Shown piece by piece: positions 8,571 to 13,366 of a stretch of 14,827 nucleotides of DNA; the stretch's first letter is position 1, and each line of letters starts with the position of its first letter. A program made the translations under genes and the position numbers. The DNA lies in the IMG/VR virus record IMGVR_UViG_2534681999_000018, positions 1-14,827 of that record. One strand, given 5' to 3'. The notes beneath the pieces are model-generated. The model made no database searches. It was not told the DNA's origin and saw only the letters and a program-made list of their open reading frames with translations. The stretch is from a virus. Taxonomy: Duplodnaviria > Heunggongvirae > Uroviricota > Caudoviricetes.

Positions 8571-8843
8571 ATGGTACATGACCGCATAGCGGAGGAACTG
8601 GAGGCGAAAGGCTTTTACCGGAGGGCGGCGGCGCGATGGGGTGAAGTCATGCAGCTGGTGGAGACAGACAAGGAACGGCATCACATCACGATGCGACGGC
8701 TGGAATGTTCAAGGAAGGCACAGAGGGCACCGGAGCCGCCGGATAATTTCGGAGACCTGAAAAAGGCAGTCGATCGCACTTATGCCGAAATGGGTATAGA
8801 TGGTGCTGGTGATGAAATATGGCGCAATTACCAGGACAGCTAA
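8571..8843 (+). CDS. PerC/Pch-family transcriptional activator homolog
   Basis: 90-aa product from ATG 8571 (GAGGGGG RBS); N-terminal MVHDRIAEELEAKGFYRRAAARW matches the recalled PerC-family signature. Confidence 0.6.
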   Translation: MVHDRIAEELEAKGFYRRAAARWGEVMQLVETDKERHHITMRRLECSRKAQRAPEPPDNFGDLKKAVDRTYAEMGIDGAGDEIWRNYQDS

Positions 8844-8849
8844 TCAAAC

Positions 8850-8873
8850 AGCCGGAGAAATCCGGCTTTTTTT
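8850..8873 (+). terminator. Rho-independent terminator, copy 1 of a repeated terminator motif
   Basis: GCCGGAGAAATCCGGC hairpin followed by 7 T, just after the perC-like stop. Confidence 0.75.
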
Positions 8874-8969: not shown

Positions 8970-9194
8970 ATGCCGATGAAATTTGATGAGATATTAAAAC
9001 AGCGTGATAAATACCATGCTGACAACATGGAGACGATGAGCATCAATGATTATCGCGCATTCCTGGAGACGGGCGCACTGATTGAAAAGGATCAGCATGG
9101 TTTTGTGAGATGTGCTCTATCCGGTGAAATGCTGGCGGTAAATCCTGAACAGATAGATGCATTGATAGAATTTCTGAAAGAGATCAGAGACTGA
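8970..9194 (+). CDS. Hypothetical protein, moron-like (own unit between two terminators)
   Basis: 74-aa ORF with GAGGAAAAAAACA upstream of the ATG; flanked by terminators at 8850-8873 and 9215-9236. Confidence 0.5.
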   Translation: MPMKFDEILKQRDKYHADNMETMSINDYRAFLETGALIEKDQHGFVRCALSGEMLAVNPEQIDALIEFLKEIRD

Positions 9195-9214
9195 GCCAGC
9201 ACACAGCACACATA

Positions 9215-9236
9215 GCCGGAGCAATCCGGCTTTTTT
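9215..9236 (+). terminator. Rho-independent terminator, copy 2 of the repeated motif
   Basis: GCCGGAGCAATCCGGC hairpin followed by 6 T; one loop mismatch relative to copies 1 and 3. Confidence 0.75.
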
Positions 9237-9248
9237 GCGCCCAAAAAA

Positions 9249-9284
9249 AGCCCGATAAGGTCAGAGGGTTCTTATCGGGCTTTT
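9249..9284. terminator. Second hairpin, potentially bidirectional terminator
   Basis: AGCCCGATAAG / CTTATCGGGCT stem flanked by an A-run upstream and T-run downstream. Confidence 0.5.
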
Positions 9285-9360
9285 GCATATGAGGTTTTTG
9301 GATGCACTGGCGTTCGTGATCGGGATAATCATTTCATAATTTGCAACATAACTCAATATC

Positions 9361-9411
9361 ATTGCATAAAATGCAATTCTGATTATAATCAGGACTGGAT
9401 AAACATCCAGT
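9361..9411 (+). promoter_or_regulatory. Promoter upstream of the capsid operon overlapped by three palindromes
   Basis: TTGCAT (9362-9367), 16-bp spacer, TATAAT (9384-9389); palindromes ATTGCATAAAATGCAAT (9361-9377), CTGATTATAATCAG (9379-9392) and ACTGGATAAACATCCAGT (9394-9411). Confidence 0.55.
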
Positions 9412-9445
9412 TATGATTTTTTTAGTCGAAGAGGAATTTCTTACT

Positions 9446-9652
9446 ATGGCTGAAGAGAAAAAAAGCGGTGTTTCGGTGTACATAAGCCCCGAAATCGTGG
9501 AGGTGCTCAAGCAGCGCCACAAAAAAAACTATGAAGCTGGCGTTGCGGCTGGACTGGATCCGCTGATGACGCCGGAGCCGTCGATAGGTTCACTTGTACG
9601 CTCTTATTTACTTGCGGCGCTTGGGATGCATAAAAATTATGGGGGTGAATAA
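9446..9652 (+). CDS. Hypothetical protein
   Basis: 68-aa product from ATG 9446 (GAGGAA RBS); stop overlaps the capsid gene start (TAATG). Confidence 0.5.
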   Translation: MAEEKKSGVSVYISPEIVEVLKQRHKKNYEAGVAAGLDPLMTPEPSIGSLVRSYLLAALGMHKNYGGE

Positions 9653-10707
9653 TGGCAGGCAAAGCAACGGCACTTAACACTAACCAGCTTTTCATGTACC
9701 TGAATCGCGGGGATATTGCGGATTTTAAATTCAGCCCTCTGTTTACCACGCTGTTTTTCCCGAACGTGGCGACATTCAGCACGCAAAACATCATGCTGGA
9801 TACCCTGGACATTGAAGAAGTCACCATGTCGGCGTTTTGTTCGCCTATGGTGGGTAGCCAGGTTCAGCGCGATAAAGGGTACGAAACCAGCACAATCAAA
9901 CCTGGCTACATGAAGCCAAAGCACGAAATCGATCCAACGAAAACCATCATGCGCATGGCTGGAGAAGATCCGGCACAGCTTAACGACCCTACCTATCGCC
10001 GTATGCGCCTGATTACTGGCAACATGCGCCGCCAGATAAACGCCATTAAGGCACGCGTGGAATGGCTGGCGGTGAATGCGGTAACGACCGGAAAAAACAT
10101 CATTGAGGGCGAAGGCATAGAACGCTATGAAATCGACTGGAAAATACCGGAAAACTGCATCATAGAGCAGGCCAAGGGTAAAAAATGGTCCGAGCAGGAT
10201 AAAGACATGCACGACCCAATCTATGACATCGAGCTTTATGCTGATCAGGCTGGTTGCCCCGCAAACGTCATGATTATGGGCGCTGAGGTATGGCGCACAT
10301 TACGCAGCTTTAAAAAATTCCGTGAGCTGTACGATCTTTCCCGTGGTTCAGAATCCGCCGCCGAACTGGCCTGTAAAAACCTGGGCGAAGTGGTGAGCTT
10401 TAAAGGCTATCTTGGTGATCTGGCCCTTATCGTCTATTCCGGCAAATACACTGACAGCGATGGTACCGAAAAATATTTCCTTGAGCCTGATTTGCTGGTC
10501 CTGGGTAACACCAACAATAAAGGGCTGGTGGCCTATGGTGCGATAATGGATCAGGAAGCGGTAAGAACGGGCGCAACACAAAACATGTTTTACCCGAAAA
10601 ACTGGATTGAGGACGGCGATCCGGCGATTGAGTACGTGCAGACACACAGTGCACCGCAGCCGGTACCGGCAGATATTCGCAAATTTGTTACCGTCAAAAT
10701 TGGTTAA
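9652..10707 (+). CDS. Major capsid protein, lambda gpE family
   Basis: 351-aa product aligns by eye along its whole length with lambda gpE (341 aa), e.g. FKFSPLF, PGYMKPKHEIDP, DPTYRRMRLI, YSGKY, LVLGNT, YPKNW, HSAPQP. Confidence 0.9.
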   Translation: MAGKATALNTNQLFMYLNRGDIADFKFSPLFTTLFFPNVATFSTQNIMLDTLDIEEVTMSAFCSPMVGSQVQRDKGYETSTIKPGYMKPKHEIDPTKTIMRMAGEDPAQLNDPTYRRMRLITGNMRRQINAIKARVEWLAVNAVTTGKNIIEGEGIERYEIDWKIPENCIIEQAKGKKWSEQDKDMHDPIYDIELYADQAGCPANVMIMGAEVWRTLRSFKKFRELYDLSRGSESAAELACKNLGEVVSFKGYLGDLALIVYSGKYTDSDGTEKYFLEPDLLVLGNTNNKGLVAYGAIMDQEAVRTGATQNMFYPKNWIEDGDPAIEYVQTHSAPQPVPADIRKFVTVKIG

Positions 10708-10719
10708 CGGGGGGATTCT

Positions 10720-11055
10720 ATGGACACTCCATACATTGAGTTATTTGCAGGCAGTCAGCAGGTATCCACGACGTTGGTACATTTTGCCGCTGATGCTGGC
10801 GTTATTCAGGAATTTACCCCGCTGATGCTGGCAGACAATGGCGAGTTTAAGCCGTGGGATGGTCAGGAATCTGGCAAGGCTGTTTATCTGACCTCGTACC
10901 CTGTGGACACGTCAAAGCAGAAATCAGCACAGTGTTACAAGACGGGGATATTCAATATTGCCGCCGTTAACTGGCCTGAGAGCGTCGACACCGATGCGAA
11001 AAAATGCGCCGCCTTTGCGGGTTCCGGCGTATCCGTTCAGCCGCTGGCCCGATAA
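10720..11055 (+). CDS. Head decoration protein, lambda gpD family
   Basis: 111-aa product (lambda gpD is 110 aa) with TPLMLA, YKTGIFN, WPE and AAFAG segments matching gpD; GGGGGG RBS. Confidence 0.85.
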   Translation: MDTPYIELFAGSQQVSTTLVHFAADAGVIQEFTPLMLADNGEFKPWDGQESGKAVYLTSYPVDTSKQKSAQCYKTGIFNIAAVNWPESVDTDAKKCAAFAGSGVSVQPLAR

Positions 11056-11067
11056 GCAGGGGGAACG

Positions 11068-11481
11068 ATGGCAACGAATGAAAGCATCATGACGCTACCG
11101 CTGGCGAGTAAATTTAAAGTCGAAGCGCGGGCAATGGCTGACAGAGGTTTATCAACCTATGAGGCCGTATATCAACTAAACAAACTGGAAGAGCAGGACA
11201 AGCCGTGCGCTGATGCGATTATGGCGCTTCATGAGCATAAAGACTATCAGCCGCTGTTGCGTGCAATGGCAAACGTGCCTTGTATCGATGTTGGTACGGC
11301 TAAAAGCATCCTTAGCATGACCATAGAGCAGGAACGTCCGAAGGTTGCGCCGGAACTTACCGCAGCCTTTGAAAACTTTATGGACATGCACAGCCCGCAA
11401 GCCGTATCAGCTGGCATGGCATACGATGGCAGAAACCAGGGCGATGACGGCGACATCGATCGCATACTGAAAACCATCTGA
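11068..11481 (+). CDS. Hypothetical protein in the capsid/packaging module
   Basis: 137-aa ORF with AGGGGGAA RBS; no recognisable motif; between the gpD-like gene and cos. Confidence 0.55.
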   Translation: MATNESIMTLPLASKFKVEARAMADRGLSTYEAVYQLNKLEEQDKPCADAIMALHEHKDYQPLLRAMANVPCIDVGTAKSILSMTIEQERPKVAPELTAAFENFMDMHSPQAVSAGMAYDGRNQGDDGDIDRILKTI

Positions 11482-11510: not shown

Positions 11511-11580
11511 CGGGTCCTTCCTGGAATTATGGCCCGTTACGGGGCGGCGACCTCGCGGATTTTCGCTATTTATGAGCCTT
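11511..11580 (+). other. Lambda-type cos site, copy 1 (cosN GGGCGGCGACCT at about 11542-11553)
   Basis: CCCGTTACGGGGCGGCGACCTCGCGGATTTTCGCTATTTATGAG matches the recalled lambda cos junction (…CGTTACG|GGGCGGCGACCTCGCGGGTTTTCGCTATTTATGAA…) almost base for base; lies about 150 bp upstream of the Nu1-like gene as in lambda. Confidence 0.8.
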
Positions 11581-11686
11581 TTCAGGGTGGTGGTGGTGGT
11601 TTTGTTGTTTGATCTATCTTTATGAATGAAAAGGGAAAGATGCAAGCAATACACCAACCTGAAGCAGTAATTAAGTTGGTGTATTA

Positions 11687-12229
11687 ATGAAATCTCATCT
11701 GATGAACAAAAAAAACATGGCGAAAAGCTGCCGTGTAAGTGCGACAGCGTTCGACAAGTGGGGAGTAACTCCCGTTGAGCGTAAAGGCCGTGAGGCGTTT
11801 TATGATGTTGCCAGCGTGATAGAAAATAGGGTTAACAATGCAATTAGCCAGCTTATAAACGACAAAGGCGAGATTGACGATGATGAACTTTTACGAGTCA
11901 GGATCAGATTACTGACAGCACAGGCAGAGGCGCAGGAACTTAAAAACGATCGCGATCGCGGTGACGTGATTGATACTGAGTTTTGCCTGTACGCGCTTTC
12001 AAAGCTGGCGAGTCAGATTTCATCAATCATGGACAGCCTCCCGCTTACTATGCAAAGGAGCTTCCCACAGATTACCCCCGCCATGCTGGACAGGCTTAAA
12101 AGGGAAGTGGTTAAAGCCTGTAATGCCAGTGCCAGAGTTGCCGACAACCTCCCACAGATACTGGCTGATTACTTGAAAGAAACAACCGGAAACGTACCGG
12201 AAAAGTTGCTACAGAAGAAAGGCGAGTAA
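11687..12229 (+). CDS. Terminase small subunit, lambda Nu1 homolog (element-encoded)
   Basis: 180-aa ORF (alternative start ATG 11702, MNKKNM...); alignable with lambda Nu1 over the whole length (NKK, FYDVASVIE, LLTAQAEAQELKNDRDRGDVIDTEFCLYALSKLASQISSIMDSLPLTMQRSFPQ, PQILADYLKETTG); weak RBS. Confidence 0.85.
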   Translation: MKSHLMNKKNMAKSCRVSATAFDKWGVTPVERKGREAFYDVASVIENRVNNAISQLINDKGEIDDDELLRVRIRLLTAQAEAQELKNDRDRGDVIDTEFCLYALSKLASQISSIMDSLPLTMQRSFPQITPAMLDRLKREVVKACNASARVADNLPQILADYLKETTGNVPEKLLQKKGE

Positions 12230-12319: not shown

Positions 12320-12379
12320 AATATTTTCATTGTTAAACAGTCTGTTACAGAGAAGAAGATCGGATCTGACTTTTGCCGG

Positions 12380-12451
12380 AAAATTCTCATAAACAGATAA
12401 AAACCGCGAGGTCGCCGCCCCGTAACGGGCCATAATTCCAGGAAGGACCCG
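12380..12451 (-). other. Lambda-type cos site, copy 2, inverted (cosN reverse complement AGGTCGCCGCCC at about 12409-12420)
   Basis: 12404-12451 is the exact reverse complement of 11511-11558 (48 bp); further lambda-like sequence (TTTATGAGAATTTTCCGG on the minus strand) continues toward the Nu1-like gene. Confidence 0.75.
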
Positions 12452-12766: not shown

Positions 12767-13366
12767 CTTGCTGATATTCCCGATAACGCAAAATTGCGCT
12801 GGCTACATCCTCACATCTGAGGACTGTTAATCAGAAGGCCGGAATATATTCACAAACTACGAAATTTTCGTAGTTTAATTAATGGTCAGATTAATCGCTA
12901 ACCCGCTGATATTTTCGGAAACCTCAATTTGAGGAAGTCGGAAGCGTCACCCTTCATATTCTGAATGGTCATAATGACCACGCAGACCATCAAGGCAACC
13001 ACAACGAACATCGTTACGGTTGGAGCTTTTACCCCACTGGGGGAAAGGTATTACGATAATCATAACACCTACCGAACAGGTAAAACCCACCAGCCTGATT
13101 AACAGTTAACCGGAAAAAAAATCCGGTAGCCCCGTTATGGGGATCCCCATATCGACATTAACGCCCCTCATGAATTGGTGCGCTTCCCCCTGGAAAGATT
13201 ACCCGCCTGTATATTTCTTGTGTCTATTTGTTCCACGTTGTTTCATACAGTGCACCGAACGGTGTAGTTAATGGTGTAGTCAATTTGCTGTTTTTAGCAC
13301 TTTTTGCAGTGTGGGTTGTTTAATTAAATCAATGGGTTGCCTTGCTGTGGTGATAAAAGGACATAT

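Follow-up and report, generated by a model that had tools for sequence, protein, structure and literature searches.

Which signal opens the capsid/packaging operon of IMG/VR virus record IMGVR_UViG_2534681999_000018 is the question raised by the short, repeat-rich region that precedes it. For this analysis we used the whole 14,827-nt stretch of the record, hereafter the window. A first-pass annotation had placed a strong TTGCAT-16-TATAAT promoter there, overlaid by three different perfect palindromes and kept off by one or more dimeric regulators, with the nearby PerC-like protein or a helper factor as candidates. All of the quoted strings and both hexamers were found in this region, which is indeed AT-rich (29% GC for 9320-9445, 49% for the whole window) and follows two terminator hairpins (9214-9231 and 9246-9284). 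From its sequence, 9328-9445 is predicted to form a compound sigma-70 promoter and leader for the capsid/packaging operon of a phage-inducible chromosomal island (PICI), and the sequence supports the notion of a dedicated operon promoter whose -35 (P1) and start site (P3) are covered by repeats resembling operators of dimeric repressors. The features are collected in Table 1.

Table 1. Features of the capsid-operon promoter region and the neighbouring genes (window coordinates)
Feature	Positions	Strand	Description
perC	8571-8843	+	Upstream of the promoter
Terminator 1	9214-9236	+	Hairpin 9214-9231 AGCCGGAGCAATCCGGCT, then T-run; ends the upstream perC/74-aa ORF unit
Terminator 2	9246-9288	Both directions possible	14-bp arms AAAAGCCCGATAAG (9246-9259) and CTTATCGGGCTTTT (9271-9284)
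O2, upstream operator-like repeat	9328-9347	+	ATCATTTCATAATTTGCAAC; degenerate P1 copy TTTCA-N5-TGCAA, centred about -57
P1	9361-9377	+	ATTGCAT-AAA-ATGCAAT = ATTGCATAAAATGCAAT; 7-bp arms, 3-nt spacer
-35 TTGCAT and -10 TATAAT	9362-9367; 9384-9389	+	16-nt spacer; overlain by P1-P3
P2	9379-9392	+	14-bp palindrome CTGATTATAATCAG; contains the -10
LexA-box-like 20-mer	9393-9412	+	GACTGGATAAACATCCAGTT; PWM score 20.8 bits
P3 repeat	9394-9411	+	ACTGGAT-AAAC-ATCCAGT = ACTGGATAAACATCCAGT; 7-bp arms, 4-nt spacer
Leader	9413-9445	+	Conserved T-run ATGATTTTTTT; ribosome-binding site GAGGAA 9431-9436
First operon gene	9446-9652	+	68-aa protein, phrog_3255
Major capsid gene	9652-10707	+	Lambda gpE-like
Decoration gene	10720-11055	+	gpD-like
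Scaffold-like ORF	11068-11481	+	
Small terminase gene	11687-12229	+	Nu1-like

The element that carries this promoter is an EcCICFT073-type PICI (OI-51/CP-933C). On its plus strand the window reads integrase, AlpA-like HTH, Bro-N, RepA-type helicase, SSB, PerC, two terminators and the capsid operon, after which phoQ follows on the opposite strand; EcCICFT073 has the same gene order, with c1499 as the capsid and c1500 as the decoration gene. The hallmarks of an EcCICFT073-type PICI were all present, namely integrase, AlpA-type regulator, primase/helicase, unidirectional transcription, capsid and decoration genes, a Nu1-like gene and an attachment site, the AlpA-type match being weak (HTH_17, E = 0.005, below the Pfam cutoff). 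Starting at 4882, the window and E. coli O157:H7 PV15-279 are 99.9% identical, and over most of its right half the window is 89-94% identical to EcCICFT073, which lies at roxA-phoQ in CFT073, the site also used in PV15-279. The element was identified as O-island 51/CP-933C/Sp7, a Gram-negative PICI (PMC3378721, PMC6092414), and the window shares with it and with EcCICFT073 the phoQ-adjacent site, the gene order and this promoter. Positions 1-4881, unmatched in the PV15-279 island copy, hold a DUF1441 gene, a truncated gpA terminase ATPase gene, a different integrase, an AlpA-like gene and a Bro-N gene. Since identity begins only at 4882, the island is a mosaic, bordered here by a prophage remnant. 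The promoter was present in 602 of 5426 complete E. coli genomes (~11%), EcCICFT073 included, and EcCICFT073-type islands occur in about one ninth of complete E. coli genomes, among them O157:H7, CFT073 and Nissle. These islands carry the virulence regulators RgdR and PerC and block helper phages. A search of genome contigs with the capsid protein or its alignment gave no matches.

The clustering of P1-P3 exceeds chance. With arms of at least 7 bp and spacers of at most 5 nt, the window contains 14 inverted repeats against 5.0 +/- 2.3 in Markov shuffles; P1-P3 span 51 nt, and a cluster of three repeats within 60 nt appeared in none of 300 Markov shuffles of the window, nor did at least three repeats appear in any of 5000 simulations under the local AT-rich composition. 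The claim of three perfect palindromes was correct for P2, which is the only strict palindrome, but not for P1 and P3, which are perfect inverted repeats with short spacers. This perfection is moreover lineage-specific: the outer pairs of P2 and P3 vary among promoter variants, and the perfect 7-bp arms of P1 are confined to the O157 lineage, most variants having 6-bp arms. As for the promoter itself, both sigma-70 hexamers are found at a 16-bp distance, within the usual 16-18 bp; the -10 matches the consensus at 6/6 positions and the -35 at 3/6 (TTGCAT vs TTGACA, TTG kept), which is why the promoter was absent from a consensus promoter scan. From this hexamer pair, transcription is predicted to start at ~9396.

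Within P2 the inner TGATTATAATCA is nearly invariant among the promoter variants, and the outer pair is A-T (n=21), C-G (n=12) or A-G (n=6); ATTATAAT is self-complementary in any case. We infer that P2 chiefly represents the -10 hexamer, its flanks being symmetric. As TATAAT reads alike on both strands of this palindrome, it might also drive a leftward antisense transcript through P1/O2 to terminator 2, an sRNA of ~130 nt for whose sake O2 and P1 would be kept as RNA. The minus-strand RNA 9376-9240 does fold well (-34.8 kcal/mol, z = -3.9), and A- and T-runs border terminator 2; however, an acceptable minus-strand -35 is absent, Rfam matches on this strand stayed far below threshold (AsxR 18 bits vs 63; AgvB 16 vs 56), and the geometry of motif and -35 is kept in Edwardsiella and the E. 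coli locus L179, which fits an operator better. We therefore regard an antisense RNA as highly improbable and treat P1 and O2 below as DNA sites. P2 was also rejected as a LexA site, its CTG-N8-CAG having the wrong spacing. Comparison by eye with the motifs of sigma-54, CRP, Fur, IHF and Fis gave no good fit; for CytR, likewise judged by eye, the GTTGCATT octamers resemble P1 half-sites, but the flanking CRP sites are absent.

For the repeat at the start site, the evidence tips toward a regulator that the first-pass annotation had not considered, namely host LexA, to which P3 would offer a dimer operator. The core 16-mer of P3, CTGGATAAACATCCAG (9395-9410), has the form CTG-N10-CAG with an A/T-rich centre, begins 6 nt past TATAAT and covers the predicted +1. 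We scored the window with a LexA matrix of 25 E. coli boxes, 18 of them being verified in Table 4 of PMC3009722. At 20.8 bits, P3 lies within the range of true E. coli LexA sites (12.9-26.6), the runner-up in the window reaching 7.2, and in 5 Mb of random sequence of matching composition a single site reached 17.5 bits, with none reaching 19.7. Position 4 of the box is G and position 13 is C, a feature shared with the ruvA and cho boxes. Such CTGG/CCAG-type boxes are weaker LexA operators. Both the ruvA and the cho box are listed with this CTGG...CCAG form in PMC3009722 Table 4; ruvAB (CTGGATATCTATCCAG) and cho (CTGGATAGATAACCAG) resemble P3 further in their ~20 bits and their place in the promoter region, but they belong to chromosomal repair genes, are weakly induced and are proven to bind LexA.

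Conservation of P3 follows the LexA consensus. Among 45 distinct promoter variants, CTG, GAT, CAT and CAG of P3 are the same throughout, and drift is seen at the three central bases; A9394, an outer position, varies with no compensating change, and the sole arm change, C9407A (3 variants), creates the consensus ACAG and breaks the hairpin. Of 80 loci sampled by their capsid protein, and thus independently of the motif, 79 have a box of 17.5 bits or more exactly 259 nt upstream of the capsid gene, the exception having a 1-nt insertion. EcCICFT073 carries an equivalent box of 21.9 bits, and the Salmonella relatives have CTGGAT-GAAA-ATCCAG (19.7 bits) in a promoter block 79% identical to that of the window, the third codon positions of the capsid gene being 46% identical. 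A Lelliottia satellite has CTGTTTTTTCATACAG, a canonical CTGT-N8-ACAG box (21.3 bits) that lies as far from the start codon of its small ORF as the box of the window does; its arms have changed and are no longer self-complementary (CTGTTT vs ATACAG), yet the LexA consensus is retained, which argues against an RNA hairpin or another palindrome-specific protein and for LexA. The LexA-like box is missing in Edwardsiella, in the E. coli L179 clade and in the capsid-forming PICI (cf-PICI) L008. P3 combines the CTG-N10-CAG form, a score in the known range, rarity and conserved consensus positions, features expected of a LexA box.

The same symmetry could also act in the transcript, P3 serving as a 5'-terminal stabilising stem-loop or, with the T-run, as an attenuator or terminator of upstream read-through. 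A terminator scan did list 9393-9412 plus ATGATTTTTT, the leader fold including the P3 hairpin reaches -20.3 kcal/mol (z = -4.2), and the T-run is conserved. Nevertheless, the stem has 3 G-C pairs only, the T-run is offset by 4-5 nt, the predicted start falls inside the 5' arm, and among the variants there are zero compensatory pair changes, while three break pair 4. P3 and the T-run thus lack the G+C-rich stem, adjacent U-tract and compensatory changes of an intrinsic terminator or attenuator, and with the asymmetric Lelliottia site also speaking against it, we consider a role as RNA very unlikely and continue with P3 as a putative LexA operator. As a separate observation on the leader (9413-9460), a predicted pairing joins its conserved U-run to the A/G-rich beginning of the 68-aa ORF and encloses the ribosome-binding site, which could provide translational control.

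The only expression data found, which are published ones for EDL933 under ciprofloxacin, bear on LexA control and conflict with it in part. RNA-seq of EDL933 after 2 h of ciprofloxacin gave a -1.8x change for the CP-933C capsid mRNA (PMC11125564 S1 Table), and the capsid protein was detectable without the drug and essentially unchanged by it (PMC11125564), which makes the earlier claim that the promoter is kept off doubtful. In the same data set the island primase rose 5.3x and recA and sulA rose 4x and 4.6x, while ruvA/ruvB were not differentially expressed (PMC11125564); Stx-phage RNA dominates the ciprofloxacin samples. These data count against both strong SOS induction and a silent promoter, and they form a real objection to LexA control; the objection is not decisive, since in so compressed a data set, with recA up only 4x and ruvAB flat, the LexA model is weakened and not excluded. 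They would suit an essentially constitutive promoter, in which the LexA-like box is too weak or misplaced to matter and the repeats are kept for promoter strength, DNA shape or leader function, as also suggested by the perfect -10 and by the G/C at box positions 4 and 13 that P3 shares with the weakly induced ruvAB box. However, several patterns are hard to square with a constitutive promoter: every box-bearing variant from E. coli and Salmonella has the same CTG/CAG, Lelliottia has a canonical box at the same position, and the right arm of P1 is conserved despite lying in the promoter spacer, which normally varies. Weighing both, we rate constitutive expression as rather unlikely, and LexA gating remains the account we lean to.

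Around the -35 lies a second conserved motif. The conserved core of P1, TTGCA-N5-TGCAA (at -27), spans the -35 and reaches halfway into the spacer, and position 9367 is C in 29 of 42 variants, which leaves exactly this core. The O2 core TTTCATAATTTGCAA (9332-9346) lies 30 bp upstream of P1 with one mismatch to TTGCA-N5-TGCAA; O2 is part of a 20-nt direct repeat, is identical in Salmonella at 19/20 positions and is retained in L008. Salmonella, Lelliottia, Edwardsiella and the divergent E. coli L179 clade all have TTGCA-N5-TGCAA. Edwardsiella carries two perfect copies, and both there and in the L179 clade the two copies are 30-32 bp apart and go with an unchanged -35/-10 geometry, which in L178 and L179 reads TTGCAx-16-TA[T/A]AAT. 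As the motif lies over the -35 and half of the spacer, its position is that of a repressor and not of a classical activator, and P1 is probably bound by a dimeric repressor. Elsewhere in the element no promoter carries the P1/O2 20-mer, which leaves an AlpA-type regulon unsupported.

The distribution of the motif points to a candidate for this repressor. TTGCA-N5-TGCAA is present in 5 of the 6 lineages having the small first ORF, is absent from three capsid-first satellites without it, and occurs only as degenerate copies in L008; from this co-occurrence we propose the 68-aa protein as the P1/O2 binder. That it does bind P1/O2 as an autoregulator is, on this evidence, a tentative suggestion whose chances we put well below even. 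The protein may, speculatively, be a small DNA-binding autoregulator, and it is at most a candidate ribbon-helix-helix regulator, the structural evidence being weak; the small protein of the Lelliottia satellite is 31% identical to it. The conserved TTGCA-N5-TGCAA pair offers a concrete handle for finding the missing regulator.

PerC of the satellite or a helper-phage protein had been the original candidates for binding the palindromes and switching the promoter on late. The position of perC upstream of the promoter would suit this, and alpA expression in EcCICFT073 depends on a helper phage (PMC6092414). However, perC is not found next to the promoter in the relatives L004, L005, L007, L096 and L097, so PerC is unlikely to be the P1/O2 binder and, judged from these loci, is not required in cis; in addition, a repressor had been proposed, yet PerC is described as an activator. 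As for a helper factor, the promoter sequence was not found in any phage record, so it is no mimic of a helper late promoter, and the confinement of the P1/O2 motif to this one promoter likewise speaks against either protein. We give little credence to PerC or a helper protein as the regulator and retain LexA and a separate P1/O2 repressor as the working candidates.

The arrangement that these observations best suit, with somewhat better than an even chance, is a LexA-gated, doubly locked promoter. From TTGCAT-16-TATAAT, RNA polymerase would start transcription unless blocked by a LexA dimer on P3, across the start site; because P3 spans the start, DNA damage, through RecA-stimulated LexA cleavage, would open the promoter by the same signal that induces a helper prophage. 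P1 and O2, 30 bp apart, would form a second operator pair occluding the -35, on which a dimeric repressor, possibly the 68-aa first product of the operon acting as autoregulator, would set the second lock. The full version with two independent locks, LexA at the start and the 68-aa autoregulator at P1/O2, is considerably less likely. Colicin promoters are doubly locked, with two overlapping LexA boxes plus a known second repressor. The promoter described here resembles them in its strength and in having a putative LexA operator just downstream of the -10 and a separate operator for another repressor, but it has a single predicted LexA box, and its P1/O2 binder is only a candidate.

Among satellites, the closest parallel is operon I of the staphylococcal SaPIs, which is reported as LexA-controlled (Ubeda 2007 Mol Microbiol 65:41, as cited in PMC6739421 and PMC6092414). 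In both cases a packaging/capsid module of a satellite has its own promoter with a LexA operator, a predicted one here, so that host SOS induction would coincide with induction of the helper prophage; SaPIs differ in being Gram-positive, with another LexA consensus, unrelated genes and control shown experimentally. As the LexA logic is known from SaPI operon I, the feature would be a predicted SOS-box promoter on a mobile element, of a known kind, beyond which the element appears to carry a conserved P1/O2 operator-like pair not previously characterised. Literature searches on E. coli PICIs did not turn up a LexA box, and the passages found on these PICIs mention LexA only via the Ubeda 2007 citation. 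Work on EcCICFT073-type islands has described AlpA-dependent induction and Rpp-mediated packaging (PMC6092414, PMC6739421, PMC3378721), and these three papers do not describe a promoter, LexA box or operator of the capsid operon, LexA appearing in them by citation only. The AlpA work leaves expression of the operon with the capsid homologue and the Nu1-like gene unexplained. The packaging-redirecting protein Rpp maps to this part of EcCICFT073. All published PICI transfer assays known to us used mitomycin C, so LexA control would have escaped notice. If the LexA operator is real, the interference/packaging module would answer host DNA damage directly and independently of a helper, by the same logic as in SaPIs; if both locks are, Gram-negative PICIs would have converged on LexA control in the style of SaPI operon I, supplemented by a feedback loop of their own.

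Several further observations concern related sites and the surroundings of the promoter. In EcCICFT073 (L100) a second, weaker LexA-like site, TACTGTTTTTTTATACACTG (13289-13308, 16.9 bits), lies between int and alpA; alpA expression is reported to be SOS-independent (PMC6092414). Terminator 2, flanked by an A-run and a T-run and for that reason possibly bidirectional, is kept in the aligned E. coli relatives, and the Salmonella relatives have other upstream terminators. Near-identical terminator hairpins at 8850-8867 (AGCCGGAGAAATCCGGCT) and 9214-9231 bracket the 74-aa ORF (8970-9194); in EcCICFT073 and other relatives there is a single terminator and the ORF is missing, which suggests an insertion with terminator duplication.

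L008 (NZ_AP045172.1, 3090-3160) belongs to a capsid-forming PICI with HK97-type capsid, protease and portal. It matches the window at the terminator, O2, a degenerate P1 and the -10 up to about +1 and then diverges, so that it shares part of the promoter and not the box, which indicates that the promoter module recombines between satellite types. In the perC-less relatives L005, L007, L008 and L098, a lambda-like cos region (ACGGGTCCTCCTGG...GGGGCGG...) lies directly upstream of the promoter, before terminator 2; the cos-like sequence of the window itself is downstream of the promoter, at ~11510. There, inverted repeats of ~75 nt (~91% identical; 11511-11586 and 12379-12451) flank the Nu1-like gene, and the cos-like ACGGGTCCTTCCTGG is present in both. 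In EcCICFT073 these repeats enclose another gene, one of 144 aa, which makes the segment look like an exchangeable or invertible cassette. Finally, the prophage remnant at the left end holds a perfect inverted repeat with 7-bp arms, AATGATAATCATTATCATT (431-449), which we take to be a close match to the Fur-box consensus, and a cos-like GCGGGTCCTCCTGGT (453-467) adjoins it.
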